The notes beneath the pieces are model-generated. The model ran no database searches. It was not told where the DNA came from and was given only the letters and a program-made list of their open reading frames with translations. This document shows, one piece after another, positions 27,353 to 46,827 of a stretch of DNA of 64,000 bases. Made by a program: the position numbers and the translations under genes. Each line of letters opens with the position of its first letter. The stretch's first letter is position 1. Source of the stretch: Oceanispirochaeta sp. (GTDB lineage Bacteria; Spirochaetota; Spirochaetia; DSM-2461); the NCBI GenBank assembly GCA_963666275.2, contig CAXXOA010000003.1, positions 160,001 to 224,000 of the forward strand, written 5' to 3'.

Positions 27353-27705
27353 ATCTGTCTCCGGGATTCTCGGGGTGGTTCAGACCGTTAAGCTGGCGTG
27401 GTTTGTGCGAATGCAGAAACCATGATCAGTAGGACTGACAGTAGCATTTGCTTGGTACGCCTGACATGGCAATAAACTTATGAGGTGAAAGTCCTCTACA
27501 GCTACCCACGTATAGCAAACATGCTATACCAACTGTTAGCCGACGGCAAGGGCAATTCCGTGAGGAATTGTCTGGAGGAAGCCTGAGTGCAAAACCGGGA
27601 GCCCATGTACAAGAATGTGATAGAAGGCCCAGTTCTGGAGGTGAGTCAGCCAATGATGACGATGCCCCGTGGGTGAGGGATAGGGTAAATCACAGGGTTG
27701 TCCGG

Positions 27706-27747
27706 CCCTGGTCGTAAACTTCGTTTACTGCTCGGGTATGCATCCGA
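27706..27747 (+). repeat. 42-nt mini-element insertion (38 bp + CCGG-type duplication) in intron 1 ribozyme region
   Basis: Absent from intron 2 at the same position; flanked by CCGG/CCGA; homologous to 28440-28481. Confidence 0.75.
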
Positions 27748-27771
27748 GGAAAGTTTATTGTCTTATTCGGG

Positions 27772-27872
27772 AACCGAAAGCCGTTTCGGCTGGAGGTTGT
27801 TATTCAAGCGGCATGGCCGCAACCTTATCGAACACAGATCGAAGCAGCTTGCTGCGTAGAACTTTATTCGGG
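27772..27872 (+). repeat. 101-nt structured indel in intron 1 bounded by 9-bp direct repeats
   Basis: TTATTCGGG at 27763 and 27864; absent from intron 2; contains three hairpins. Confidence 0.75.
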
Positions 27873-28203
27873 GAGATCTGTCTGCAAGGCGGTAACGGCG
27901 GTTTGACCGTGAGAATCCGGAGGATACCGGGGTAACAAATCCAGGCCTATCAGGGGATGACACTCTGATAAGGAGCCGTTTATACGGAACACAAAGAAGT
28001 CGTCACAGCGATTCAAACCGGATGATACAGCGTCAGCAGGAGTAATTCTACTGATAAGCAGACAGAAGTCAGCAGAAGGCATAGTAGCCAACGCCCGGAG
28101 TAATGTCCGGTTCATGGTGAAGGTCTGAACATTTCACAAGGAGGAGCCTGATGGTTCTCAAAGGAACAATTTCAGTTTATGCCGGAATCACTTTTGGCGG
28201 ACC

Positions 28204-29526
28204 ATGGAGAAACCAGCCTTGAACGAATCTATGATGGATTTGATTCTGTCGCAAGATAACATGCGTGATGCCTGGAAACGGGTCAAACGCAACGGTGGAA
28301 GTCCGGGGATTGATGATATATCAATCTCTCAATTTCCTGATTACCTTAAAAATCGGTGGCCAAGAATCAAACGAGCTTTGCTCAATGGGTACTATGTACC
28401 TTCTCCGGTGCTGAGGGTGGAAATCCCGAAGAAATCCGGAGGCTGGTCGCAAACAAGTTTGCTGCTCGCCCATGCAACCGGGGGAAAACGGATGCTGGGA
28501 ATCCCGACAGTTCTAGACAGGGTTATCCAGCAGGCTATTTCACAGGTTCTGAATCCCATATTTGATCCGGATTTCTCGGAGCATAGCTATGGATTCAGAC
28601 CGGGAAGATCGGCTCACGGAGCAGTGAAACAGGTAAATCAACATGTCAAATCCGGGTATAGATACGCCGTGGATCTGGACTTGGAAAAGTTCTTTGATAC
28701 AGTTAATCATGATATCCTGATGCATTTTGTGGCTGTAAAAGTCTGGGACAAATCTGTCCTCAGACTCATCGGCCGTTACCTGAGAGCCGGTATTCAGTTG
28801 GACAATGGAAAAGTGATTCCTACAGACATCGGCACACCCCAAGGCGGGCCCTTATCACCTCTGCTTTCCAATATCCTCCTTGATCGGTTGGATATGGAAC
28901 TGGAGAGAAGAAATGTGAGGTTCGCACGGTATGCAGATGACACTATCCTTTTAACGAAGAGATTGTGTGATGCTAGGAAGATCCTACAGGAAGTTTCAAT
29001 ATTTCTGGTAAGGAAATTGAAATTGGTAGTGAATCAGGAGAAAACGAAAGTTGCAAAGATAAGGGAGTGCAGTTTCCTGGGATTCACATTCAAGGGTAAG
29101 AAGATTCGCTGGACAGAGTCGTCCTTTGAGGATTTTCGGTATCATCTGAAATATCTGACAAGGCGTTCCTGGGGTGTTTCCATGGAATACAGAATCGGGA
29201 AACTCAATGAGTATATCCGGGGCTGGATGAACTACTATGGGATCTCCCAATATTACAGCCCTATACAGAATCTTGATGACTGGCTCCGTAGGAGGATTCG
29301 CATGTGCTACTGGAAACAGTGGCGATATCCCAGAACGAAAGTCAGGAAACTGATGGAACTGGGAATTCCGAAAGATTTTGCCATTATCACCGGTGCCAGT
29401 AGTAAATCCTATTGGCATCTCTCCAAGTCTTACGCTACCAATGCAGCTATGTCCAATAAATGGCTGGAAGAGCAGGGATTGGTCAATATCAAATATCTGT
29501 GGTGTAAAGCCCAGGGATATATCTGA
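28204..29526 (+). CDS. ltrA: Group II intron reverse transcriptase/maturase (no endonuclease domain)
   Basis: R.LGIPTVLDR, SYGFRPGRS, DLEKFFD, GTPQGGPLSPLL, RYADD, FLGF, GWMNYY. Confidence 0.95.
   Translation: MEKPALNESMMDLILSQDNMRDAWKRVKRNGGSPGIDDISISQFPDYLKNRWPRIKRALLNGYYVPSPVLRVEIPKKSGGWSQTSLLLAHATGGKRMLGIPTVLDRVIQQAISQVLNPIFDPDFSEHSYGFRPGRSAHGAVKQVNQHVKSGYRYAVDLDLEKFFDTVNHDILMHFVAVKVWDKSVLRLIGRYLRAGIQLDNGKVIPTDIGTPQGGPLSPLLSNILLDRLDMELERRNVRFARYADDTILLTKRLCDARKILQEVSIFLVRKLKLVVNQEKTKVAKIRECSFLGFTFKGKKIRWTESSFEDFRYHLKYLTRRSWGVSMEYRIGKLNEYIRGWMNYYGISQYYSPIQNLDDWLRRRIRMCYWKQWRYPRTKVRKLMELGIPKDFAIITGASSKSYWHLSKSYATNAAMSNKWLEEQGLVNIKYLWCKAQGYI
28440..28481 (+). repeat. 42-nt in-frame mini-element in RT gene (also at 31622-31663)
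   Basis: CCGG-AGGCTGGTCGCAAACAAGTTTGCTGCTCGCCCATGCAA-CCGG; removal restores canonical PKKSGGKR. Confidence 0.75.
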
Positions 29527-29660
29527 TCAAATCAGGATTTCGTTTGCTCCATGGAGTGAACCGCCCCGTGCGGACCCGCATGCGGGGTGGTGTGGGGGCT
29601 GGAGGTTAAAAGCCTCCGGCTACCCGATTTATCTAGCCCTCATATTTTCTGTTCAGTAAT

Positions 29661-29981
29661 TTAAGATGTGAGTCTATAATCCAGAATATGTGGTTCTCTT
29701 TCTAACAACTCTAATAATATTTTTGTTGAACCTGTGGGTGTTCGTTTTCCCTGTTCCCATTGCCTAACCGATGATGCACTTACATTGAGTAATTTCGCAA
29801 ATACTGCCTGACTAAGATGTATTGATTCTCGTATTTTCTTTATATCTTCTGCTGAAACATTTACTTCAGGTATGTTAATTCCCAGTGATTTTAATTCCTT
29901 GTCAGTGAAGGATGTGGGAAGACCTGCATCGATTAGATCTTGTACAGTTTCGGCAATAGAATCTTTTATTGAATCTCTCAT
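29661..29981 (-). CDS. XRE/HTH antitoxin (HigA-like)
   Basis: IKKIRE...SQAVFAKLLNVS..SVRQWEQGKRTP.G. Confidence 0.88.
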   Translation of the reverse strand: MRDSIKDSIAETVQDLIDAGLPTSFTDKELKSLGINIPEVNVSAEDIKKIRESIHLSQAVFAKLLNVSASSVRQWEQGKRTPTGSTKILLELLEREPHILDYRLTS

Positions 29982-29982
29982 A

Positions 29983-30351
29983 CTATTCCCCTATTATCTG
30001 CAAAGCATTATTTTTTATGGCAGTATCTAGTTGCTTATTGTTCAAATTTAATAAATCTTTGCCAATTTTCTTGAAATACTCCAATTCTTTACTGGAGATA
30101 TTATCCATTTCATTCTTCGAAAAACCATATATAAATACAGCTCTGTCATTTTCTTTAAAGACCAGAATTGTCCTGAAACCTCCACTTTTACCGGAACCTT
30201 TCCTGGCGATTCTGACTTTGAATATATTGGATCCGAGTTTGACCGATGATAAATCTGATTCAAGATTACCGATAGCATCCTGAAGATTCTTATCAGCAAT
30301 ATCATTCTTTTTCGCCCATTTGGTGAACCATTTAGTTTTCAGTTTCTTCAC
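29983..30351 (-). CDS. RelE/ParE family toxin (HigB-like, toxin-first)
   Basis: KTKWF.KWA, KVRIAR.G.GKSGGFR, FIYGFSKNE..NI. Confidence 0.88.
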   Translation of the reverse strand: MKKLKTKWFTKWAKKNDIADKNLQDAIGNLESDLSSVKLGSNIFKVRIARKGSGKSGGFRTILVFKENDRAVFIYGFSKNEMDNISSKELEYFKKIGKDLLNLNNKQLDTAIKNNALQIIGE

Positions 30352-30676: not shown

Positions 30677-30779
30677 GCTAGATAACGCCCGCATCAGCTG
30701 CAATTTTGTCCCGTAGGGTTGGCGACCTTATTGAGTATTCAAAAAGGGTGACAAAAAAATTGTCAGTTGCATGCGCTTG
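30677..30779 (-). repeat. attC site interrupted at its R'' core by intron 2
   Basis: GCTAGATAAC-gcccg-catcagctgcaatt...aattgtcagttgcatg-cgctt-G|TTATGTAT. Confidence 0.85.
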
Positions 30780-31385
30780 GTACGCCCGACATGGCAATAA
30801 ACTTATGAGGTGAAAGTCCTCTACAGCTACCCACGTATAGTAAACATGCTATACCAACTGTTAGCCGACGGCAAGGGCAATTCCGTGAGGAATTGTCTGG
30901 AGGAAGCCTGAGTGCAAAACCGGGAGCCCATGCACAAGAATGTGATAGAAGGCCCAGTTCCGGAGGCGAGTCAGCCAATGATGACGATGCCCCGTGGGTG
31001 AGGGATAGGGTAAATCACAGGGTTGTCCGGGGAATGTTTCTTGTCTTATTCGGGGAGATCTGTCTGCAAGGCGGTAACGTCGGTTTGACCGTGAGAATCC
31101 GGAGGATACCGGAGCAACAAGTCCAGGCCTATCAGGGGGTGACACTCTGATAAGGAGCCGTTTATACGGAACACAAAGAAGTCGTCACAGCGCTTCAAAC
31201 CGGATGATACAGCGTCAGCAGGAGTAATTCTACTGATAAGCGGACAGAAGTCAGCAGAAGGCATAGTAGCTAACGCCCGGAGTAATGTCCGGTTCATGGT
31301 GAAGGCCTGAACATTTCACAAGGAGGAGCCTTATGGTTCTCAAAGGAACAATTTCAGTTTATGCCGGAATCACTTTTGGCGGACC

Positions 31386-32732
31386 ATGGAGAAACCAGCC
31401 TTGAACGAATCTATGATGGATTTGATTTTATCCTCTGAGAATATGCACAAAGCCTGGAAACAGGTCAAACGCAATGGAGGTAGCCCTGGAATCGACGGTA
31501 TCACTGTCGAGAAGTTTCCAGGATATCTGAAAACCAGATGGCCTAGAATCAAACGAGCTTTGCTCAACGGGTACTATGTACCTTCTCCGGTGCTGAGGGT
31601 AGAAATCCCGAAGAAATCCGGAGGCTGGTCGCAAACAAGTTTGCTGCTCGCCCATGCAACCGGGGGAAAACGGATGCTGGGAATCCCGACAGTTCTAGAC
31701 AGGGTTATCCAGCAGGCTATTTCACAGGTTCTGAATCCCATATTTGATCCGGATTTCTCGGAGCATAGCTATGGATTCAGACCGGGAAGATCGGCTCACG
31801 GAGCAGTGAAACAGGTAAATCAACATGTCAAATCCGGGTATAGATACGCCGTGGATCTGGACTTGGAAAAGTTCTTTGATACAGTTAATCATGATATCCT
31901 GATGCATTTTGTGGCTGTAAAAGTCCGGGACAAATCTGTCCTCAGACTCATCGGCCGTTACCTGAGAGCCGGTATTCAGTTGGACAATGGAAAAGTGATT
32001 CCTACAGACATCGGCACACCCCAAGGCGGGCCCTTATCACCTCTGCTTTCCAATATCCTCCTTGATCGGTTGGATATGGAACTGGAGAGAAGAAATGTGA
32101 GGTTCGCACGGTATGCAGATGACACTATCCTTTTAACGAAGAGATTGTGTGATGCTAGGAAGATCCTACAGGAAGTTTCAATATTTCTGGTAAGGAAATT
32201 GAAATTGCTAGTGAATCAGGAGAAAACGAAAGTTGCAAAGATAAGGGAGTGCAGTTTCCTGGGATTCACATTCAAGGGTAAGAAGATTCGCTGGACAGAG
32301 TCGTCCTTTGAGGATTTTCGGTATCATCTGAAATATCTGACAAGGCGTTCCTGGGGTGTTTCCATGGAATACAGAATCGGGAAACTCAATGAGTATATCC
32401 GGGGCTGGATGAACTACTATGGGATCTCCCAATATTACAGCCCTATACAGAATCTTGATGACTGGCTCCGTAGGAGGATTCGCATGTGCTACTGGAAACA
32501 GTGGCGATATCCCAGAACGAAAGTCAGGAAACTGATGGAACTGGGAATTCCGAAAGATTTTGCCATTATCACCGGTGCCAGTAGTAAATCCTATTGGCAT
32601 CTCTCCAAGTCTTACGCTACCAATGCAGCTATGTCCAATAAATGGCTGGAAGAGCAGGGATTGGTCAATATCAAATATCTATGGTGTAAAGCCCAGGGAT
32701 ATATCGTAACCGTCAAAACTACAGGCCCTTGA
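31386..32732 (+). CDS. ltrA: Group II intron RT/maturase; last 8 aa derived from IS66 read-through
   Basis: Same motifs as intron 1 RT; IS inserted immediately before the native TGA. Confidence 0.93.
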   Translation: MEKPALNESMMDLILSSENMHKAWKQVKRNGGSPGIDGITVEKFPGYLKTRWPRIKRALLNGYYVPSPVLRVEIPKKSGGWSQTSLLLAHATGGKRMLGIPTVLDRVIQQAISQVLNPIFDPDFSEHSYGFRPGRSAHGAVKQVNQHVKSGYRYAVDLDLEKFFDTVNHDILMHFVAVKVRDKSVLRLIGRYLRAGIQLDNGKVIPTDIGTPQGGPLSPLLSNILLDRLDMELERRNVRFARYADDTILLTKRLCDARKILQEVSIFLVRKLKLLVNQEKTKVAKIRECSFLGFTFKGKKIRWTESSFEDFRYHLKYLTRRSWGVSMEYRIGKLNEYIRGWMNYYGISQYYSPIQNLDDWLRRRIRMCYWKQWRYPRTKVRKLMELGIPKDFAIITGASSKSYWHLSKSYATNAAMSNKWLEEQGLVNIKYLWCKAQGYIVTVKTTGP

Positions 32733-34260
32733 AAGCCCTTTTCTGAATAGCTTCCCGGTCACAGTTCCAGGGAAGCAGTTTTTCTTTGTCAAAATCATCT
32801 TCCATGACTGCGACCTGATCGAATATCCACCATAGATATCCATAGGGATTCAGATCATTCACTTTCGCCGTCTCAATCAAAGAGTAAAAGAGACTACTGG
32901 ATTTAGCACCCCTCGGAGATCCGGAGAACAGCCAGTTTTTCCGACCAACCACAAAAGGTTTAATCGCCCGTTCAGCGGCATTGTTATCCGGCGTCAGGTA
33001 GGGAGACTCAATAAAACGGACGATTTTCTCCCACTGGCCCAAGATATAGGCTATCGCTTTTCCCGTCGCCGTAGACGGCCTAACCTTTTCAGCCTTGTCA
33101 TCCAGCCAGGATTTGAGGTCATCCAGAAGCGGCTGAACCAGCTCTTTTCTCCTGTTCAAGAACTTCATATCATCCAAATGCTCATCCCGGAGATTACTTT
33201 CAATCCGGTAAATATCTCTGATTTTCTTTACAGCAATTTGAGCGCTTCCGGCTTTCTTTGAAGCCTTCGCGGCATCTACAAATTTCCGACGGGCATGTGC
33301 CAGACAACCGACATGAATGATATCTTCGTTGCCGTCCAGTGCCGTTTCATAAGCCTGATAGCCGTCAGTCTGGAGATATCCCGAATATCCCTCCAAAAAC
33401 GCCTTGGCATGCTGAGAACTTCTTGTTTCATGGTAGTCGTAGATCACAAGGGGTGAGTCCGGAGGCCCTCCCCGGGCAAGCCACATGTAGGATTTTGAGG
33501 TGTCCGGACGGTTTTCTTCTCCCAGAACCTGCACTGTGGTTTCATCCATCTGGATAACAGGGCCTTCTTTGATCTTCTTCCTAAACATATCCATAAGGAA
33601 TTGGAGCCTTTCTGCTGATTTATTTGTCCAATTGGACATGTCTTGGCGGCTGATATGAGCGCCGATACGCTCAAAGCGCTTCTCCTGCCTGTAAAACGGC
33701 AGATGATCACAGAACTTATTCACCAAGATAAAGGCTAAAAGCCCCGAAGTAACGATACTACCGGGAAGGATGGAAGGAGCCGCCGGGGCTACTCTGAAAA
33801 CCGGTTTGTCTTCATCACCGGAACCCTCACAGTTCCGGCAGGCATACTTGTAACGGATATGACGCTCCACGTATATCTGCTCGGGGATATGCTGAAGCCT
33901 TTCACTGACAATCTCATCAATCTTATCCAGTTGATGCCCGCAGCCGCAGATCTTTTCCTCTTCGGGAATGTCATGGATGATGTCCTCCCGGGGGATGTTG
34001 CTGTCCAAAGGCTTTCGTCCTGCCTTTGTTCGGCTATGTGCGGGAACTGTTATCTGATCATCTGCTGCGAATTCTTCCTCAGAAGGAGCCTCTTCTTCAA
34101 ACAGTTCCTTCTGGTTAGGATCGATTTTCTCGCTGGAACGTCCAAACTTGCGATGAAGAGCCAGGCGGAGTTCTTCTGTTAATTGCTCAATCTGACCAGA
34201 CATACTCTGGATGAGTTCAAGTGCTTTCTCTGGTGATTTTTGTATCTCCGCCAAGTCCAT
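32719..34260 (-). CDS. tnpC: IS66 transposase
   Basis: FGRSSEK, zinc finger, HLPFYRQ, MDET, GCLAHARRKF, DNNAAERAIK. Confidence 0.95.
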   Translation of the reverse strand: MDLAEIQKSPEKALELIQSMSGQIEQLTEELRLALHRKFGRSSEKIDPNQKELFEEEAPSEEEFAADDQITVPAHSRTKAGRKPLDSNIPREDIIHDIPEEEKICGCGHQLDKIDEIVSERLQHIPEQIYVERHIRYKYACRNCEGSGDEDKPVFRVAPAAPSILPGSIVTSGLLAFILVNKFCDHLPFYRQEKRFERIGAHISRQDMSNWTNKSAERLQFLMDMFRKKIKEGPVIQMDETTVQVLGEENRPDTSKSYMWLARGGPPDSPLVIYDYHETRSSQHAKAFLEGYSGYLQTDGYQAYETALDGNEDIIHVGCLAHARRKFVDAAKASKKAGSAQIAVKKIRDIYRIESNLRDEHLDDMKFLNRRKELVQPLLDDLKSWLDDKAEKVRPSTATGKAIAYILGQWEKIVRFIESPYLTPDNNAAERAIKPFVVGRKNWLFSGSPRGAKSSSLFYSLIETAKVNDLNPYGYLWWIFDQVAVMEDDFDKEKLLPWNCDREAIQKRAFKGL

Positions 34261-34301
34261 GAGAAAATTCTAACATGTTTGAATTCCATTGGGAAGATGG
34301 T

Positions 34302-34649
34302 TTAGACAATCTCTTCATAACTGAGAGTTTGATGAGTATGCCAGAAGTCAATACCTTCCAGGAGCATTTTCAACTGTTCCTGGGATATCTGCCTGGCTTG
34401 CTCTTCTGAATCCGGCCAGGGGTATTTTCCTTTTTCCAGGCGCTTCTGCCAGAGACAGAATCCGTTGCGATCCCAGTAAATGCACTTTATCAGCTTGCGG
34501 TCCCGGCTGCAAAAGAGGAAAAGGCAACCGGAACCAGGGTTAAGTTCCATTTCCTCCTGGGTGATAATGGATAAACCATTGACCTGTTTCCGCATATCGG
34601 TGATACCAGGTCTGACGTAGATTTGAATGCTGGTAAAATCCGGAATCAT
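34302..34649 (-). CDS. tnpB: IS66 accessory protein
   Basis: TDMRK..NGL, FLFC, YWD.NGF.LWQKRLE. Confidence 0.95.
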   Translation of the reverse strand: MIPDFTSIQIYVRPGITDMRKQVNGLSIITQEEMELNPGSGCLFLFCSRDRKLIKCIYWDRNGFCLWQKRLEKGKYPWPDSEEQARQISQEQLKMLLEGIDFWHTHQTLSYEEIV

Positions 34650-34984
34650 TTTAGGATCTCTTTTAAATCGGCGACAAGACGAATCAGCGAATGAGAATCG
34701 TAATCTGATGGAATATTGATCTTATGCCCGGAGGGGTATTCGATTGAAAATGGGCTTCCTGTAGACGCCTTCAAAACTACTGGAATCCTCACAAGCCCTT
34801 TTTCCTTCTCTACTGCTGATTCCTTGCGGATTTTCATTCTCCAATAGTCGAAGGTTGAAACGGGGATGCTATTCTTCAGGCAGAACTCTGTTCGGTTTAA
34901 ACTGCTCTTCTCCCATTCATTGATTTTTCGTTTCCAAATGTCTTTTTTTTCCATGCAGTAAATCTCCTTGTAGAAATTGTGCAT
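34646..34984 (-). CDS. tnpA: IS66 accessory HTH protein
   Basis: W..S.L...EFC....I..STF.YW. Confidence 0.85.
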   Translation of the reverse strand: MHNFYKEIYCMEKKDIWKRKINEWEKSSLNRTEFCLKNSIPVSTFDYWRMKIRKESAVEKEKGLVRIPVVLKASTGSPFSIEYPSGHKINIPSDYDSHSLIRLVADLKEILK

Positions 34985-35218
34985 GGAATTCAGATTACAT
35001 CGTAGGGCATAAGAAATTGACGGTTACGATATATCTGATCAAATCAGGATTTCGTTTGCTCCATGGAGTGAACCGCCCCGTGCGGACCCGCATGCGGGGT
35101 GGTGTGGGGGCTGGAGGTTAAAAGCCTCCGGCTACCCGATTTATGTATTTCTTTTTGGGAATCTCATTATTTGCATGTCTCACCCCTCATTTTTGGGTAA
35201 GATTTTGGAGTTATTTCA

Positions 35219-35830
35219 TCAGACTCCTTTGCTACTTAAGATAAATTCACAAATTTCATTATCATTCAGCATCTTATCTCGGTCGATTAATTTTATAGTT
35301 TCTGTTTTTGTAAAATAACTCTGTTTGATACTTTTCTGATTTTCGAAAACTTTAAGATACCCATTGTTAATGTCATCCCAATTCAATGTTTTTTCATAAA
35401 AAGAATTATCTTTACTAGCAAAAGGCCTACTTCTTGTCATTATGCAAATTGTCACATCATACTTGTCTTGCAGTTTTGAATAAAGCCTATGATGTATATC
35501 ATATATAAGCGATAACTCGAATTCATCTAAACCTGAAAGTTCCCCATAAATTAATGCGGAGATATAGCTACGATCCATTACTATATTAGTATCTGAATAA
35601 AGCATTGTTTCGTATAGATCAACGGTATGAGATATTGTGTGAAGAAGTTGCCGTTCAAATGGTGATATTGAAGTTTTTCCCTTTACAATACCACGTAGAA
35701 AACCTAGAGTATTACTTGCGCTTGGTTGCTGAAGAATAGAGGCATTTATCATTGTTGATAGTTGTTTAGAAATTGTAGATTTACCAAGATTATCGGCAGA
35801 TTCTAAAATCACTAGTTTATGTTTATCCAC
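35219..35830 (-). CDS. Thymidylate/deoxynucleoside-monophosphate kinase-like protein
   Basis: LVILESADNLGKST P-loop, ERQLL, VMDRSY.S.L.YG; GTG start 35830 overlapping the upstream stop. Confidence 0.8.
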   Translation of the reverse strand: MDKHKLVILESADNLGKSTISKQLSTMINASILQQPSASNTLGFLRGIVKGKTSISPFERQLLHTISHTVDLYETMLYSDTNIVMDRSYISALIYGELSGLDEFELSLIYDIHHRLYSKLQDKYDVTICIMTRSRPFASKDNSFYEKTLNWDDINNGYLKVFENQKSIKQSYFTKTETIKLIDRDKMLNDNEICEFILSSKGV

Positions 35831-37847
35831 CGTTCTTGCCCTCCACTCCTTTAATACCTTGTAGAATGAGTAAAATAATCTCATCAATAAACTTACTATT
35901 GAAAAGTATTCGGTTTTCCTCTTCTGAAAGTCCATTGTTTTCTGAAAGACCTGCGATTCCAATATTACTTATTTCTTGTACAATTGATTCATAGCTAATA
36001 TCTTTCTCTTCTGAATCTAACTCAAATAAGTCACTAATTTCTTTGTAGCCAGCGTTATGATGTAATTGCCACTCTTTTGTTAATTCTTCAGGAATAGTAC
36101 CACTTACTAATAATTCACATACCTTGGATGTAACACCTCCAAAACCTCCAAGCAAATACAATGGTTTTTTTTCTCTTAAAGAAATAATTATTTCCTCGAA
36201 AACACCAGGATACTTACCCTTGTAACCAGAAAAGCGACCTCCTGCAGAAATTCGATAATTGCACTGCCCAATCATTTCTTTACGCATCTTAGTTAAACAT
36301 AGACTCCATGCAAAGCAGTTTATCGCACCGACAGGACGTAGAAATATTTCTTTATCATGGTTTTTCTGGACTTTTTCTGATGGCTCAACCTTAATAATTT
36401 TTACCACCTTATTATTTTTTGCATTCCAATCCAAAGTAGGTTCATCAATATTTGTGTAAATAGGCCATGCTAAATAATTTTGAATTTTTGGCGTGGATGC
36501 CTGTAATCGATCTTGCACAACTTTTGCCTCTTCGCAAAGAAATTCTGAAAATCCTCCTGGACGAAGATCACCACCATAAACAACAGTAGCATCTCGAAAA
36601 AGTAAATGGCGTGCAATAGTTTGAGATAGAGAAATCAAATGTTTATTAGTTTGCCCAATATTTAGCAATTCCTCAGGTTCAGGATCTGATATAGATATTC
36701 CTATCGAAATTCCAGCAAAGGCTTTTAACTCCAATGTAAGGGGAGTACAAGCAATAATTCCTAATGGTTCAATACATTTATGCTCTATTCCATATACTGG
36801 AGGATCGGGATAAATGATTTTTGAGAACTTAGAATATATTGAGTCTCCGGAATTTGAAAGTAAATTGGTTATGTCAGACAATTCTGGAGGTCGGACCAAT
36901 AACATCGTTGATCCGTCATCATGTATACTTAATAAATCTTTGTAATAATTGATTTTTAGTGTTTCGAGTAGTGCGGTCTCAAGAATAGTATGTATATCAA
37001 GCTCAGAGATAGGTAAGCTAGAGTCTAAATGAACAGATGGTACATTGACAGAATGTGGAAATGCTCGATCTTCGTTTACTTTTAAATAGTTCACAACGAT
37101 TATTGGGAGACTATTCTCTTTGGCTATTAATATCTCTTTTTGACACCAATATCTCATAGAATAATTATCAGATTGAATTGAAATCAATGTGGAATCTTTT
37201 ACGGAATTTTCAATTTCATCTTCAAAATCATGAGAAATATGGATATCATATGCATCGTAAAAACGATGCATTAACGTATTATCAATAAATGATTTTAGTG
37301 ATTTAGCCGTTTCAACGGCCCAATCATCGTATTTCGTATGACTTAAAAATAACTTTATAGCACTATCATTACCTGGAATGTTTCCACCGTTAGAAAAAGC
37401 AAATCGATAGATTTCGTGAGTTGCTGAAATGAAAAACTGTTGGGTAATATATTGTTTGTCAAAGTCATAAAGCCTTATAAAATTTAACTTTTCATATTTC
37501 TTATTCAACCCAAATCCGAATTCTGAGTTAATAGCAATTGGAATAACTTGTTGGTCATCAACGGAAAGAAATGTGTCATAATAAGCTCTCCAATCAACAT
37601 TCCCAGTCACATACTTGTTGGAGAAACAAAAAATTATAGTTTTTTTTGCTTTTGAATCAATTCTTTTGGGTATAGCATTGTCATTCGAAGTTCGAAAGAA
37701 TACAGGAAGATTCATACTTCTAGAAAATGGTCTTGAAATATCTTTTTGAAATCTGTCAAAACAATACTCTACTAAAGGCTTTACAATAGCTTCATCAGCT
37801 GAATGCCAAACAAAATAGATTGCAAGTGGCTGCCTAAAAATTTGCAT
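35823..37847 (-). CDS. TIR-SLOG fusion protein (N-terminal TIR-like region, central TIR, C-terminal SLOG)
   Basis: KLFLSHTK.D...RYWCQKEI (TIR with catalytic Glu); VYGGDLRPGGF, LTKMRKEM, AGGR..GY.GKYPGVFEE, PLYLLGGFGG (SLOG). Confidence 0.82.
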   Translation of the reverse strand: MQIFRQPLAIYFVWHSADEAIVKPLVEYCFDRFQKDISRPFSRSMNLPVFFRTSNDNAIPKRIDSKAKKTIIFCFSNKYVTGNVDWRAYYDTFLSVDDQQVIPIAINSEFGFGLNKKYEKLNFIRLYDFDKQYITQQFFISATHEIYRFAFSNGGNIPGNDSAIKLFLSHTKYDDWAVETAKSLKSFIDNTLMHRFYDAYDIHISHDFEDEIENSVKDSTLISIQSDNYSMRYWCQKEILIAKENSLPIIVVNYLKVNEDRAFPHSVNVPSVHLDSSLPISELDIHTILETALLETLKINYYKDLLSIHDDGSTMLLVRPPELSDITNLLSNSGDSIYSKFSKIIYPDPPVYGIEHKCIEPLGIIACTPLTLELKAFAGISIGISISDPEPEELLNIGQTNKHLISLSQTIARHLLFRDATVVYGGDLRPGGFSEFLCEEAKVVQDRLQASTPKIQNYLAWPIYTNIDEPTLDWNAKNNKVVKIIKVEPSEKVQKNHDKEIFLRPVGAINCFAWSLCLTKMRKEMIGQCNYRISAGGRFSGYKGKYPGVFEEIIISLREKKPLYLLGGFGGVTSKVCELLVSGTIPEELTKEWQLHHNAGYKEISDLFELDSEEKDISYESIVQEISNIGIAGLSENNGLSEEENRILFNSKFIDEIILLILQGIKGVEGKNGG

Positions 37848-38435
37848 TTAATAACTCCACTTTGTTTGAGACTCTGATCGATTATTAGCAAATGACGGAT
37901 AACTGTTATCTGGAATATCAATTTTTCGTCTATTAAAAGCATCATCTATCCAATTTTGCACTATATATGGATTAATATCCCAATTATATATTTTTGCGTA
38001 GCCGCACTTTATATTATCATATAAGCGAGGTGGAATAGTGAAGGGGTTATATTGACCACCATTCTCACAACTTTTGTTTTCCCATGAATACTCACAATTA
38101 TAGGATGGTAAGAGTATTCCTATTAACCCTGTACGACTATTATACTGGGTTTTCCTGATACTAGAGGAAATTTCCCAGTCTACATGTTTTCTTTTCCACG
38201 TATCTTTACCAATCAAGACAATAGCAACTGTAGCGTCTTTTATAAATTTATCGCGTATTTGCTGACGTATAGTGTCGGTTTGCAATAAAGGGTTAATATC
38301 TCCTTCTTCAACTGATTTTGATATAAATCCATCAAATGAATTCGTGAATTTTTGAATAAATTGCTTTTTATAAGATTCATCATTTTTATGATGATAACTT
38401 ATGAATACTTTGTGTTTTTTTATCATTACATCCAC
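37848..38435 (-). CDS. ThsB-like TIR domain protein
   Basis: HKVFISYHH.ND, D.IRQ.IRD, VLIG..TW.RKHVDWEI.SS, PPRL.DN. Confidence 0.88.
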   Translation of the reverse strand: MDVMIKKHKVFISYHHKNDESYKKQFIQKFTNSFDGFISKSVEEGDINPLLQTDTIRQQIRDKFIKDATVAIVLIGKDTWKRKHVDWEISSSIRKTQYNSRTGLIGILLPSYNCEYSWENKSCENGGQYNPFTIPPRLYDNIKCGYAKIYNWDINPYIVQNWIDDAFNRRKIDIPDNSYPSFANNRSESQTKWSY

Positions 38436-39062
38436 CTATGATTGACCATCATATCTAATAAATTTCTCTTCTTGAAACATGGAAGGGAATCCAATTAGCC
38501 CATTATTATAGTTCTGTTGAATATATTCTAAAATTTGCAATGCGATCTTTTCATCCACATATCTGTGTCCTGGACCTCTTTTGCAAAGTTTTGTTGAAAT
38601 TTTTAATGGTATTTCAAACGCATCTTTCCCAAAGTAATAGAAATGACTTGAGATTAGTACCATGTCAGTAGTTGAAGTGTCTCGTTTCAAATTATGCTGA
38701 TTTATTTCGCCATTTTCGAGACTATGATGAGAATTATCTTGATGCCAATCACCATCATTTTTTTGGTGATATATATTGTCTCCATACATTTTCTTCAGAC
38801 TGCCATTCATCACCGGTTTTTTGTATTGAAAATCTGGATTTTTGTAGTATTCATTAAATGTCATTTTGGCCGTTACTTGCATAGTATAAATCAACCTAGG
38901 CGATTGTTGGTGTATGATGGATGATGTGCCAAATATCCAGTCGCCTATTTTTGCACTCTTTCTAATACTCGGCTTACAAGTTGCTAAAGTGCAATGTTTT
39001 CCAAATGGATTGGGTGCAAAACCAAAATCTCGAGGTATAACATATGAATAATACATAGCCAT
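38436..39062 (-). CDS. Nucleotide modification associated domain 2 (Nmad2)-like protein
   Basis: YSYV..RD.GFAPNPF...CTLATCKP.IR..A..GDWI.G, GDNIY, VLIS..FYYFG. Confidence 0.75.
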   Translation of the reverse strand: MAMYYSYVIPRDFGFAPNPFGKHCTLATCKPSIRKSAKIGDWIFGTSSIIHQQSPRLIYTMQVTAKMTFNEYYKNPDFQYKKPVMNGSLKKMYGDNIYHQKNDGDWHQDNSHHSLENGEINQHNLKRDTSTTDMVLISSHFYYFGKDAFEIPLKISTKLCKRGPGHRYVDEKIALQILEYIQQNYNNGLIGFPSMFQEEKFIRYDGQS

Positions 39063-39532
39063 TAACAATTGCTCCTGCCAATCCCATATCTACTTTGCCA
39101 AGGGCCATTCCCTTCAGAATTATCAAAGTCATTGCAAATTCCGTTTATTGCATCAATAATTTTTCCTGAATTCCACCCTACTAAAGCATCTCCAAATTTC
39201 TGGAAAGATTCTGGGACATCGGAATCCTTTGCTCCTTGCATAAAAACTCCTACAATAGGCTTTCCTTGTTTTGCTGCCTGCTCAATTTCCCAATTAACCC
39301 ATTCTCTAGTATGCGTTTGCGGACCGATCAAGACAACTGTTGTTCCCGCCCAACTTATTCCATCTCTCAATAATCCTTTAATGTATTCAGGGTTTTTTGC
39401 ATCATTAGGCTTTGTGCTATCAATTGAACTATTCCTCAGAGTATAACCTTTATCGCCGAGCATCTTCTTTAAAGCTTGAACGCTTTCATCATCCTTTCCA
39501 TAATGGCTGATAAACACATTTTTATTCTTCAT
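39062..39532 (-). CDS. ThsB-like (MTH538-type) TIR domain protein
   Basis: NVFISH..KD, ISWAGTTVVLIG..TH.REWVNWEIE.A...GK.IVGV. Confidence 0.88.
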   Translation of the reverse strand: MKNKNVFISHYGKDDESVQALKKMLGDKGYTLRNSSIDSTKPNDAKNPEYIKGLLRDGISWAGTTVVLIGPQTHTREWVNWEIEQAAKQGKPIVGVFMQGAKDSDVPESFQKFGDALVGWNSGKIIDAINGICNDFDNSEGNGPWQSRYGIGRSNC

Positions 39533-40152
39533 CAATATCCTCCTTTCAAGAATAAAGAATTTAATGATGGATTGTGAAACTTTATACCATTTTGCTTATG
39601 CGTTTTTGAATACAATGCAAGAGCCCAATCATGAAGGAAATCATTTTCAGATTCAAAAAATTCTTCAGATTCTCGCATCCTAATAGATTTTTCCCATTCT
39701 TCAAGTTTTTTTAATTGTTGATCAAAAGATGTTAGCGACTCAAATTTACTTTTGTACACATATGATTCATTTGAGCATGAAACCACTTTGCTTAAAGATA
39801 CTATCTTTTCTCTAAATTCTTCATAATAATGAAGATTATTTGTGATATGGTAATAAGAGCCAATTTCATAACCCAAAATTCCAGCAAAATATTCTAGCAT
39901 GAACATGTTATTAAACATATTAATACCAGTTGCACCCCAAAGAAAATCATTAGATCTCATATGAACATAAAGATTTAGCTTTCCTTGAACATCTCGAATA
40001 AACTGGATAGATCTAGTGCATGGGAAATCTTTTGTCTCCTTGATTATACCATTATTAAAACAATCTTTGACTGGATCACCTATATCAATTATTGCCTGTC
40101 TTGTGAACGCATCACGTTTAAAAGACTCAATTACATAACTAAACTGTAAGCG

Positions 40153-41724
40153 TCAAATAAACACAGGCCCTTTATCAGCCGTAATGTTATCTTTTAAATT
40201 CCATGGTAATAATTCTTCCCATTCTTGTTCATTATTGATGAACGGAGCTTTAGAGAAAACATAATGCAGATAATCAAAGGGATTCAAATTATTTTGTTTT
40301 GCAGTCTCAATCAGAGAATACATCCCGCAGGAACTGTCTGCCCCTTTGGGATTCCCGGAAAATAGCCAGTTTTTCCTCCCCAGAACAAAAGGACGAATAG
40401 CATTTTCACTGCCATTATTATCCGGAGTCAGATAAGGACTTTCCAGATATCGGATCAAATAATCCCATTGATTCAATGCATAATGAACAGCCTTACCTAA
40501 AGCACTTTCAGGTAAAACATTTTCAGCCCTTTTATCCAACCATTGTTTAAATTTTTCAAGAATGGGTTCGGCCTTGCTTTTCCGTTGTTCCTGGAACTCT
40601 TCAGGAGATAATTTCTTACTCCTTAGATCATTTTCCAAGGCATAGAGCTTCTTGATATGCTTGATTCCTTCCAGAGCACTTTTAGATTTTTTACTGGCTT
40701 TATCAGCCTCAAAGAACTTCCTTCTGGCATGTGCAAAGCAGCCTACCAGATGTATATCGGGATTGCCTTCTACCGCGGTTTTGTATCCTTGATATCCATC
40801 GGTTTGCAGATACCCTTTAAAACTAGTGAGAAAATTCTTTGCATATTCCGATGCCCGTGTTGGATGGTACTCATAATAAACAGCTTGTTGTCCCGGAGGA
40901 CCGCCTCTGGACAGCCACATATAGGATTTCTGTTTGTTATCCCGACCTGGTTCATTCAGAACCTGTACGGTTGTTTCATCCATTTGGATCACCGGACCGG
41001 ATTTTATGTGGGTTTTCAGCAGTTCAAAGAGAGGGAGAAGAGCTTCATAAGCCTTTTTCTGCCAATTACTCATATTCTGACGGCTGATTCGGGCTCCCAT
41101 ACGCTCAAACCGCTTTTCCTGTCGGTAAAAAGGAAGATGGTCCACGTACTTGTTTACCATCAGAAATGCCAACAGACCGGGAGTGACAATCCCTTTGGGG
41201 ATGATGGAAGGCTCCGGAGGGGCAATCTTTACAGCAGGAACATCTTCATCGGCGGTTCCTTCGCAATTACCACAGGCATATTTTAACCGGACAATCCGTT
41301 CTACCCAGATACGGGGAGGGATCACATGCAGTTTCTCAGAGATTTCTTCTCCGATTTTTTTCAGTTCTGTTCCGCAGGCACAGTTTTTTTCATCTTCAGG
41401 AATATCAATAATCCGTTCTTTGCGGGGAAGGTTCTCATCCAGAGGCTTTCTGCCTGTTTTCTTACGCTTGTAAGAATCTATTTGCTGTTCTTCCGAACAG
41501 TCTTCCTCAGGAGTCTGTGGTTCATCAGAATCAAATAATTCAATCTGATCAGGGATATTTTCTGCTCTTCGACCGAATTGACGATGCAATGCCAAGGCCA
41601 ACTTCTCTTCAAGAAGCTGATATTTCTTTTCCCAGTTCTGATTCTGGGCTTCTGATTCAGCAAGTTGCTTTTTCAGAGATAAAAATTCTTTTTGTGCTTC
41701 CAACGGAAGAGAGGAAATATCCAT
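40153..41724 (-). CDS. tnpC: IS66 transposase
   Basis: HLPFYRQ, MDET, GCFAHARRKF, DNNGSENAIR. Confidence 0.95.
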   Translation of the reverse strand: MDISSLPLEAQKEFLSLKKQLAESEAQNQNWEKKYQLLEEKLALALHRQFGRRAENIPDQIELFDSDEPQTPEEDCSEEQQIDSYKRKKTGRKPLDENLPRKERIIDIPEDEKNCACGTELKKIGEEISEKLHVIPPRIWVERIVRLKYACGNCEGTADEDVPAVKIAPPEPSIIPKGIVTPGLLAFLMVNKYVDHLPFYRQEKRFERMGARISRQNMSNWQKKAYEALLPLFELLKTHIKSGPVIQMDETTVQVLNEPGRDNKQKSYMWLSRGGPPGQQAVYYEYHPTRASEYAKNFLTSFKGYLQTDGYQGYKTAVEGNPDIHLVGCFAHARRKFFEADKASKKSKSALEGIKHIKKLYALENDLRSKKLSPEEFQEQRKSKAEPILEKFKQWLDKRAENVLPESALGKAVHYALNQWDYLIRYLESPYLTPDNNGSENAIRPFVLGRKNWLFSGNPKGADSSCGMYSLIETAKQNNLNPFDYLHYVFSKAPFINNEQEWEELLPWNLKDNITADKGPVFI

Positions 41725-45285: not shown

Positions 45286-46827
45286 CTACAGGCCCTTGAA
45301 AGCCCTTTTCTGAATAGCTTCCCGGTCACAGTTCCAGGGAAGCAGTTTTTCTTTGTCAAAATCATCTTCCATGACTGCGACCTGATCGAATATCCACCAT
45401 AGATATCCATAGGGATTCAGATCATTCACTTTCGCCGTCTCAATCAAAGAGTAAAAGAGACTACTGGATTTAGCACCCCTCGGAGATCCGGAGAACAGCC
45501 AGTTTTTCCGACCAACCACAAAAGGTTTAATCGCCCGTTCAGCGGCATTGTTATCCGGCGTCAGGTAGGGAGACTCAATAAAACGGACGATTTTCTCCCA
45601 CTGGCCCAAGATATAGGCTATCGCTTTTCCCGTCGCCGTAGACGGCCTAACCTTTTCAGCCTTGTCATCCAGCCAGGATTTGAGGTCATCCAGAAGCGGC
45701 TGAACCAGCTCTTTTCTCCTGTTCAAGAACTTCATATCATCCAAATGCTCATCCCGGAGATTACTTTCAATCCGGTAAATATCTCTGATTTTCTTTACAG
45801 CAATTTGAGCGCTTCCGGCTTTCTTTGAAGCCTTCGCGGCATCTACAAATTTCCGACGGGCATGTGCCAGACAACCGACATGAATGATATCTTCGTTGCC
45901 GTCCAGTGCCGTTTCATAAGCCTGATAGCCGTCAGTCTGGAGATATCCCGAATATCCCTCCAAAAACGCCTTGGCATGCTGAGAACTTCTTGTTTCATGG
46001 TAGTCGTAGATCACAAGGGGTGAGTCCGGAGGCCCTCCCCGGGCAAGCCACATGTAGGATTTTGAGGTGTCCGGACGGTTTTCTTCTCCCAGAACCTGCA
46101 CTGTGGTTTCATCCATCTGGATAACAGGGCCTTCTTTGATCTTCTTCCTAAACATATCCATAAGGAATTGGAGCCTTTCTGCTGATTTATTTGTCCAATT
46201 GGACATGTCTTGGCGGCTGATATGAGCGCCGATACGCTCAAAGCGCTTCTCCTGCCTGTAAAACGGCAGATGATCACAGAACTTATTCACCAAGATAAAG
46301 GCTAAAAGCCCCGAAGTAACGATACTACCGGGAAGGATGGAAGGAGCCGCCGGGGCTACTCTGAAAACCGGTTTGTCTTCATCACCGGAACCCTCACAGT
46401 TCCGGCAGGCATACTTGTAACGGATATGACGCTCCACGTATATCTGCTCGGGGATATGCTGAAGCCTTTCACTGACAATCTCATCAATCTTATCCAGTTG
46501 ATGCCCGCAGCCGCAGATCTTTTCCTCTTCGGGAATGTCATGGATGATGTCCTCCCGGGGGATGTTGCTGTCCAAAGGCTTTCGTCCTGCCTTTGTTCGG
46601 CTATGTGCGGGAACTGTTATCTGATCATCTGCTGCGAATTCTTCCTCAGAAGGAGCCTCTTCTTCAAACAGTTCCTTCTGGTTAGGATCGATTTTCTCGC
46701 TGGAACGTCCAAACTTGCGATGAAGAGCCAGGCGGAGTTCTTCTGTTAATTGCTCAATCTGACCAGACATACTCTGGATGAGTTCAAGTGCTTTCTCTGG
46801 TGATTTTTGTATCTCCGCCAAGTCCAT
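45286..46827 (-). CDS. tnpC: IS66 transposase
   Basis: Identical protein to 32719-34260. Confidence 0.95.
   Translation of the reverse strand: MDLAEIQKSPEKALELIQSMSGQIEQLTEELRLALHRKFGRSSEKIDPNQKELFEEEAPSEEEFAADDQITVPAHSRTKAGRKPLDSNIPREDIIHDIPEEEKICGCGHQLDKIDEIVSERLQHIPEQIYVERHIRYKYACRNCEGSGDEDKPVFRVAPAAPSILPGSIVTSGLLAFILVNKFCDHLPFYRQEKRFERIGAHISRQDMSNWTNKSAERLQFLMDMFRKKIKEGPVIQMDETTVQVLGEENRPDTSKSYMWLARGGPPDSPLVIYDYHETRSSQHAKAFLEGYSGYLQTDGYQAYETALDGNEDIIHVGCLAHARRKFVDAAKASKKAGSAQIAVKKIRDIYRIESNLRDEHLDDMKFLNRRKELVQPLLDDLKSWLDDKAEKVRPSTATGKAIAYILGQWEKIVRFIESPYLTPDNNAAERAIKPFVVGRKNWLFSGSPRGAKSSSLFYSLIETAKVNDLNPYGYLWWIFDQVAVMEDDFDKEKLLPWNCDREAIQKRAFKGL

Follow-up and report, generated by a model that had tools for sequence, protein, structure and literature searches.

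The cyanobacterial repeats SDR1-8, which Elhai et al. (2008; cited in PMC5861425) are said to have described, are reportedly very small structured repeats with compensatory changes, whose copies nest within their own kind as well as within further mobile elements; the enzyme that moves them is said to be unknown. They are said to be 21-27 nt long and confined to Nostocaceae, and an RNA intermediate has reportedly been proposed for them. How tiny structured repeats such as these, the Rickettsia palindromic elements (RPE) and the CGTC REPs enter genes is an open question; for the CGTC REPs, the account in PMC3733652 gives no known transposase. The HUH enzymes of IS608 and TnpA-REP are described as binding the folded strand and picking the cut via guide pairing at the foot of the hairpin. 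In the same accounts (PMC6006769, PMC8266576, PMC3333891), IS608 is an established case of both guide-directed cleavage and ssDNA circles, and for TnpA-REP these have been shown or modelled.

Here, small insertions were analysed in a window of 64,000 nucleotides, the whole stretch of DNA under study, from a genome of Oceanispirochaeta sp. (the source genome). They belong to an apparently undescribed family of elements of about 42 nt that is almost certainly mobile.

Insertions in two group IIC introns

The window contains two group IIC introns amid minus-strand cassette-like genes, as well as one IS3 copy and IS66 copies (Table 1). In position and orientation these introns appear to fit the IIC-attC introns, which in the description of PMC3001079 are likewise of the IIC type and lie in cassette arrays opposite to the cassette genes; this likeness is one of type, position and orientation, and in contrast to the IIC-attC introns the about 11 mosaic copies present here bear several small insertions. 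Eleven intron 5' ends were found in the source genome, whose largest intron array adjoins an integron integrase. The closest named relatives of the reverse transcriptases (RTs) of the window introns come from Spirochaetaceae and Oceanispirochaeta MAGs (81% identity). Three IS66 elements are present in the window (32719-34984, 40153-41724 and 45286-46827), one of which splits intron 2 and lengthens its ORF to 448 aa. A toxin-antitoxin-like cassette pair (122 aa and HTH 106 aa; 29661-30351) lies between both introns. Furthermore, a minus-strand cluster at 35219-39960 is a candidate defence island, with TIR-like small ORFs and a 674-aa protein whose match to Thoeris ThcB4 is weak and falls below cut-off (E=5e-6).

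Table 1. Features of the two introns and of the insertions that they carry, in window positions
Feature	Position	Strand	Remarks
Group IIC intron 1 (attC-type)	27456..29628	+	Rfam RF02001 and RF01998; 3' end read from sequence; hosts sites B and C
Empty site A of intron 1	27640..27641	+	Filled in 2 other intron copies of the source genome
Element copy, site B (intron 1 domain I)	27706..27747	+	CC-CTGGTC-15-nt hairpin-TGCTCG-GG-TATGCA-5-nt tail; 42-nt gap versus empty introns
Other 101-nt multi-hairpin insertion	27763..27863	+	Intron 1; 9-nt repeat at ends; accompanies site B in 3 intron copies
Intron 1 RT/maturase	28204..29526	+	440 aa filled, 426 aa without insertion; YADD intact; TIGR04416 387.7 bits (cut-off 300)
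Element copy, site C (RT of intron 1, in frame)	28441..28482	+	GG-CTGGTC-14-nt hairpin-TGCTCG-CC-CATGCA-6-nt tail; 14 codons GWSQTSLLLAHATG
attC-like imperfect palindrome	30680..30780	-	Intron 2 inserted in bottom strand; shape read from sequence
Group IIC intron 2	30781..32705	+	Cut near 3' end by IS66 element; intron 3' end resumes at ~35028-35147
Empty site B of intron 2	31031..31032	+	TCCGG^GG
Element copy, site C (RT of intron 2)	31623..31664	+	Identical to intron 1 site C copy

Among the 11 aligned intron copies, clean 42-nt gaps were detected at three sites, with site A filled in 2, site B in 4 (one of them a hybrid) and site C in 5 copies. The alignment thus bears out two homologous 42-nt insertions with compensatory changes, as had been noted in the first-pass annotation of the window, and also that the site B insertion is present in intron 1 and missing from intron 2, whose site B is empty. 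The empty site C allele reads CCGGA^GGAAAA in 6 sister introns, which fixes the insertion at the position given in Table 1 and excludes a target duplication of CCGG. The insertion adding GWSQTSLLLAHATG to the RT of both introns had been recognized correctly, but lies one base further to the right than first placed and is codon-aligned. CCGG as a duplicated target and a unit of 38 bp plus 4 nt had to be abandoned: the unit is the 42-nt element, the empty alleles are without duplication, at site B the left flank is CCGG but the right flank CCGA, and only 2 of 114 independent sites have CCGG in both left flank and tail. As judged from these alleles, the insertions at sites B and C are real and recent. 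The site B copy is the best covariance-model match in the window (E=5e-13), and its active strand is proposed to be the minus strand.

Empty and filled pairs were also obtained at sites E and F in a relative. In contigs of other public runs, sites A and E have additional alleles, and site B holds a tandem. Mixed-variant tandems as well as deletion hybrids were seen, the latter between two copies: from B to E about 330 nt of the ribozyme are lost, and from A to C domain I is fused to the RT loop (C1:1038324, loci L009 and L487). A degenerate copy lies inside intron domain V (C1:1032412-1032449), and a deletion hybrid at domain V was found in another genome (L104 in G019). Other insertions occur in the same introns. 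Two intron copies have a 22-24-nt palindromic insertion in domain I, adjoining site A (C1:1038170-1038200 and C3:269870-269900), and the 101-nt multi-hairpin insertion of intron 1 recurs in contigs of other runs, its first hairpin resembling a separate repeat family of ~41 nt.

The RT loop motif was found 65 times in 64 of 78 homologous loci, always with 5-6 residues as compared to 19 here, and the other 14 yielded no motif. One locus without it (L009) is explained by recombination of two element copies that deleted everything between sites A and C. The insertion at site C maps to the loop of the GsI-IIC RT between PKPGG and GTRQLGIP (gap versus 6AR1). An ancestral origin of the segment, which would have spoken against an insertion, was rejected: the 14 residues are absent from all 65 of the relatives' loops found, from the 6 empty sister introns and from the GsI-IIC RT. 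In an AlphaFold model of the filled RT (mean pLDDT 86.5) strands 69-75 and 95-100 are kept and residues 78-93 form a low-confidence loop, as expected since the other 40 alignment rows are without the insertion. We take this loop to be the fingers hairpin, equivalent to the insertion-tolerant beta3-beta4 loop of HIV RT. On this model, the fingers beta-hairpin carries the 14 residues at its tip, and the RT probably tolerates them or is complemented in trans. All five filled RT ORFs are open, and YADD is present. The claim that the filled RT allele spread by its own retrohoming is unsupported, the intron copies being recombinational mosaics.

Frame-preserving copies survive in ORFs. A further in-frame copy occupies a second RT site (L008), for which an empty allele was aligned, and the open frames of TopB and RsmF carry antisense copies of 42 and 45 nt. 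Thus, the behaviour resembling that of Rickettsia palindromic elements, as suggested earlier, was recovered with in-frame copies in genes.

A helix across the element junction

On the plus strand, the element has the anatomy NN-CTRGTC-(hairpin of 13-18 nt)-TGCTCG-N'N'-YATGCN-tail (NCCN..R). It is 39-45 nt long and mostly 42 nt, a shorter hairpin going along with a longer tail, so that 42 nt are kept in the two commonest classes. The proposed preservation of reading frames holds, but a fixed length of 42 nt does not: distinct tandem units measure 39-44 nt, with 42 nt in 15 of 31.

Covariation supports the stems: of 580 cells, 95.7% pair, wobble pairs number 9, and there are 163 two-sided changes (0 of 500 shuffles); in 58 rows of 42 nt, 9 of the 10 pairs have two-sided changes. 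NN is complementary to N'N' in 168 of 191 non-redundant contexts, and in 62 of 80 when not CC. Of 271 rows, 114 were kept as independent sites once tandems, near-duplicates and the rows of hairpin classes 12, 13 and 16 had been taken out; here NN is the reverse complement of N'N' in 106 of 114 cases, and in 36 of 41 when N'N' is not CC. The Y of YATGC pairs with the last tail base of the element at 97 of the 114 sites (Fisher 1e-22, with tail length assigned by hairpin class from the same data), compared to 58 of 114 for pairing with the left flanking base (p=0.06). In 142 single copies this first base covaries with the fifth tail base (p=6e-18; left flank p=0.35); in the class with a 14-nt hairpin its partner is the sixth. 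The 58 rows contain 29 C-G and 17 T-A junction pairs, 1 wobble and 11 misses, as compared to 18 C-G, 11 T-A, 10 wobbles and 19 misses for the flank alternative, and a single copy (C1:115553) has an A:T double change.

Thus, the four pairs R-N-N-C / G-N'-N'-Y form an uninterrupted helix only if the 3' end is joined to the 5' end, as happens in a circle or a tandem. This holds at 27 of 37 tandem junctions detected with a relaxed pattern, some of the misses being spurious matches. The Y:R pair could stack in the linear form too, so that its covariation is no proof of a free circle. No such circle was seen among the assembled contigs of public runs, a kind of data that could not reveal one.

The element inserts as a discrete unit and without real target duplication, mostly at R^GG and at many unrelated sites. 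The reconstructed target R^GG has frequencies of 85%, 72% and 52% at the 114 independent sites. The target dinucleotide matches the guide at 46 of these sites versus 33 expected (p=3e-4), and in 8 of 41 with non-CC guides. Where target and NN differ, as at site B and in nested copies, the dinucleotide on the left is that of the element and the one on the right that of the target. Tail and left flank agree at 198 of 589 positions, with 178 expected by chance (p=0.011).

The hairpin loops were analysed for the folding strand. In 73 of 113 distinct hairpins with triloops the plus strand has TNC (TTC 40, TGC 11, TCC 11 and TAC 11, counts that share ancestry), which corresponds to GNA on the minus strand, and only 1 of 113 has GNA on the plus strand; the triloop background is 29 and 26 of 490 (6% and 5%). 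A C-G pair closes 102 of the 113 triloops, and the commonest even loop is CAAG on the plus strand, CTTG on the minus strand (15 of 55). C(GNA)G is a DNA-specific stable loop, and GNA and CTTG are stable loops of the DNA type. For this reason, it is probably the minus strand that folds, as ssDNA. ViennaRNA energies separated neither the strands nor DNA from RNA, and the folding z-scores of the whole element are weak (-2.1 to +0.4). A lagging-strand bias of copies outside introns and rRNA operons was not detected in the source genome (13 versus 9, a weak test). The minus-strand consensus CC^Y is common to both element ends and the target.

Copies, range and hosts

Profile searches of the source genome with a profile built from 23 of its copies yielded 34 copies at E<=2.4e-6, and the best match on the reversed genome had E=15. 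A covariance model of 58 rows of 42 nt, one of them a source-genome copy, likewise gave 34 copies at E<1e-3 with 150 of 984 candidates scored. A strict pattern was matched in 28 of the 38 family genomes, its backward control in none. Of 401 genomes sampled from the phylum, 15 were positive, with up to 59 copies. The prediction of a tiny non-autonomous structured mobile repeat with further copies in this genome and its relatives thus stands, given also the empty and filled pairs. The element was also found in other spirochaete families and in Firmicutes-like contigs. Metagenome matches numbered at least 136, of which 105 have complementary closing dinucleotides, and their neighbours Coat_F, Com_YlbF, FBPase_2 and PrgI seem to point to Firmicutes hosts. 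Viral matches numbered at least 121; 14 have a stem of at least 4 pairs, and most others are chance. No match covering more than 80% of the query was found in the plasmid collection.

In the source genome the element is found in introns, in REP-like hairpins, antisense in four 23S-5S spacers, as a tandem ahead of tRNA-CAT and in a tRNA remnant. The latter, at C2:648533, is an att-type remnant, and its identification as an intact tRNA was rejected. Eight REP-like hairpins have exactly 42 extra nt when compared to many empty ones. Many of the source-genome copies are hitch-hikers from one event. Further hosts are another group II intron, IS110, a TnpB element, tRNA leaders and the element itself (nested). 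IS91-like genes are hosts as well, with copies in 6 of 37 HUH loci scanned; 4 of these come from the 30 loci of the family search. The element does parasitize a retroelement, as had been suggested, but not specifically: most source-genome copies lie outside introns, and 2 of 30 family group II RT loci carry it.

Several observations concern the hosts themselves. Single IS110 or IS91-like copies contain 2-4 separate element insertions (L421 in G343, L329, L410 and L411). A hairpin repeat family, CCCTCTCC-N5-GGAGAGGG, is abundant throughout the source genome (e.g. C2:1193034-1194281) and hosts the element. A second structured repeat of ~41 nt (GTCGTACCG..hairpin..GAGGAACGATC) nests in the element and forms its own tandem of three (L261:455-580, L302, L316, L413 and L414). 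Two unrelated types of 23S-5S spacer coexist, one at C1:2457681 and in a C2 spacer and the other in four other operons; the element lies in the type with four copies, of which two have a further 51-nt palindromic insertion.

Possible transposition route and related systems

From the sequence comparisons, the interpretation that we hold to be slightly better than evenly supported is that of a non-autonomous REP/IS200-like element moving as a closed ssDNA rod of ~42 nt; a circular ssDNA step as such is somewhat more probable than not. The minus strand would fold as ssDNA through its GNA and CTTG loops and bring both ends together. An enzyme supplied in trans would then cut both ends (minus-strand CC^Y) and close a rod-shaped circle of ~42 nt, which would be reopened at the junction and joined 3' of a target dinucleotide tending to pair with the same internal 'guide' bases. 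The guide logic would be that of the IS608/REP HUH enzymes, with one hairpin and a variable guide of 2-3 bases. Renewed insertion at the regenerated site would give tandem arrays of different variants, copies would be carried along within introns, IS elements, REP-like repeats and rRNA operons, and where two copies recombine, the DNA between them would be lost.

By analogy, the mover may be an HUH-type enzyme, which we suggest only tentatively. The search for a matching transposase, which had been proposed along with the original claim, came out negative. Of the 38 family genomes, 8 have Y1_Tnp (PF01797, which divergent class 3 members may escape), as does 1 of 5 element-rich genomes, and the gene does not track the copies. 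The 7 Y1 matches of the source genome (L001-L007) are flanked by other inverted repeats, GGGACGGAGG, and are of a TIR-associated type; the 2 Y1 loci of G171 are without an element copy. IS91 Y2_Tnp, detected in 15 of 38 family genomes and not in the source genome, does not track copy number either. A Pfam scan of 89 of 137 neighbouring frames gave no recurring enzyme near copies, and no copy framed a transposase gene in the loci examined. Two candidates were rejected. One was a TnpB gene with flanking copies, which lie in two hosts, a larger repeat upstream and a right-end region. The other was an autonomous version carrying cargo within its loop: in 5 rich genomes right ends are about as numerous as full elements, and 50 loci contained no such version.

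It is unlikely, in our view, that the element spreads as an RNA copy through template switching by a group II or other RT, its end-joining pairs being selected as a self-contained domain that spares the folds of host RNAs, be these an intron, a tRNA or mRNA leader or an omega or bridge RNA. Such a route would agree with all intron-sited copies being in the sense of the intron RNA, with 23 of 168 copies lying in sense before a ribosome-binding site with Shine-Dalgarno sequence and start codon just downstream (control direction 0), and with the many hosts that are structured RNAs. However, copies occur in either orientation to host genes, antisense ones being present in ORFs and the 23S-5S spacer, the GNA loops are antisense and wobble pairs are rare. 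Moreover, the sense bias at GGAG is explained by the R^GG target, and group II RT, with matches above cut-off confined to 9 of the 38 family genomes, does not track copy number; G008, G017 and G030 have 7-11 copies and no match (two of these genomes are incomplete).

A resident enzyme of the host or of an integron (tyrosine recombinase, type IA topoisomerase or relaxase), and not a dedicated HUH transposase, might also move the same folded ssDNA circle; we consider this improbable. The missing dedicated partner, the integron integrase of the source genome, the partial homology next to the cut, as a strand-exchange homology test would leave, and hosts that include conjugative, rolling-circle and cassette DNA passing through ssDNA would fit this, whereas the element is too short for an attC fold and has no GTT/AAC core, and its patchy range (15 of 401 phylum genomes) argues against a universal enzyme sufficing.

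A cis-regulatory or processing RNA motif passively spread via gene conversion is very improbable: the position before tRNA-CAT is conserved in the source genome, G002, G016 and G343, and the 23 copies before Shine-Dalgarno sites could be read in the same way, but polymorphic insertion in ORFs, introns and the element itself, both orientations, unrelated neighbours and the missing Rfam match speak against it. Nested and in-frame copies largely refute this explanation, and secondary regulatory effects are possible. A 38-bp MITE-like unit with a DDE transposase and a 4-bp CCGG duplication is hardly credible. At 4 of the 5 intron sites whose empty allele is known, CCGG lies no more than 1 base away, and tail and left flank are slightly alike, but the empty alleles lack the duplication, CCGG on both sides is confined to the 2 sites mentioned above and terminal inverted repeats are lacking.

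The favoured reading as a closed ssDNA rod can be extended speculatively, and with less confidence, to cross-phylum self-guiding elements of ~42 nt. These would be covalently closed ssDNA rods with a programmable 2-3-base guide for junction and target, living as hyperparasites of mobile elements with an ssDNA or RNA phase and using an enzyme outside the known Y1/Y2 families. If true, such rods would be near minimal transposons and a tractable model for gene entry of the RPE/SDR kind. As the family offers exact empty and filled pairs, a strand, a cut point that is defined and a predicted circle junction of 42 nt, one PCR and synthetic oligonucleotides can test the mechanism. Its copies lengthen the RT fingers hairpin and further proteins by loops of 14-15 residues, and parts of mobile introns are deleted between two copies.

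No Rfam match was obtained at gathering level in the window, at E<=10 for 27400-28600 or at E<=1 for 20 metagenome loci. Our literature search yielded no description of the family, which supplements such as the REP tables of PMC6006769 and PMC3733652 could hold, and four 14-nt core motifs occurred in no full text searched.

Among described systems, REP/TnpA-REP/RAYT, as portrayed in PMC3733652, PMC6006769, PMC8266576, PMC3333891 and PMC4690160, shares with the element a strand-specific DNA hairpin of 20-65 nt with a 6-bp stem and a 2-3-nt loop followed by GAN, an unpaired zone in the stem, in-frame gene copies, copies inside larger palindromes and a C^T-like cut consensus on the folded strand. 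The minus-strand core CGAG-CA-S6-L2/3-S6-GAC parallels the pseudomonad REP plan GTRG-GA-S6-L2-S6-GAN given in PMC4690160. In contrast to REPs, there is no GTAG/GTGG or CGTC tag, the invariant columns being CGAG (minus) or TGGTC (plus); the ends are fixed with exact empty and filled pairs, the guide dinucleotide varies and covaries, and no flanking Y1 gene was found. Instead of inverted dimers (BIME/REPIN) we found 31 distinct head-to-tail units and one near inverted pair (L288).

With IS200/IS605 (IS608, ISDra2), as described in PMC6006769 and PMC8266576, the element shares the lack of target duplication. A short target that looks like its own end and tends to pair with bases at the foot of the hairpin may be a second common trait (guide match at 46 of 114 sites), and the ssDNA circle, as predicted here, would be a third. 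The element differs in having one hairpin in 42 nt and not two ends around tnpA, no linked TnpA, a 2-3-nt pairing that spans the cut in place of a tetranucleotide, and no lagging-strand bias in the weak test above. The Rickettsia palindromic elements described in PMC3733652 and PMC3184786 are also palindromic repeats in frame in protein genes, adding a loop. Their sequence and hosts are unrelated, RPE-4/6 have a CGTC tag, and a junction-spanning helix is not part of the descriptions given there.

Overall, the element has the size and shape of a REP, being a multicopy hairpin of 20-65 nt with a short stem and a 2-5-nt loop, and lacks the tag 0-2 nt 5' of the stem, the flanked tnpA-REP gene and the inverted dimers of that class, as well as the terminal inverted repeats and target-site duplication of MITEs. 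In behaviour it belongs with the SDR/RPE class: it is dispersed, recently mobile, in frame and nested, with compensatory structure and no coding capacity. It differs from SDR1-8 as described above in its ~42 nt, its occurrence in spirochaetes and Firmicutes-like contigs and its DNA-type loops. The insertions are real, and the element would work like REP/IS200-type hairpins and behaves like SDR/RPE repeats, but it is neither a REP nor a MITE. In-frame structured repeats are already known, and the new part is the junction-spanning helix.
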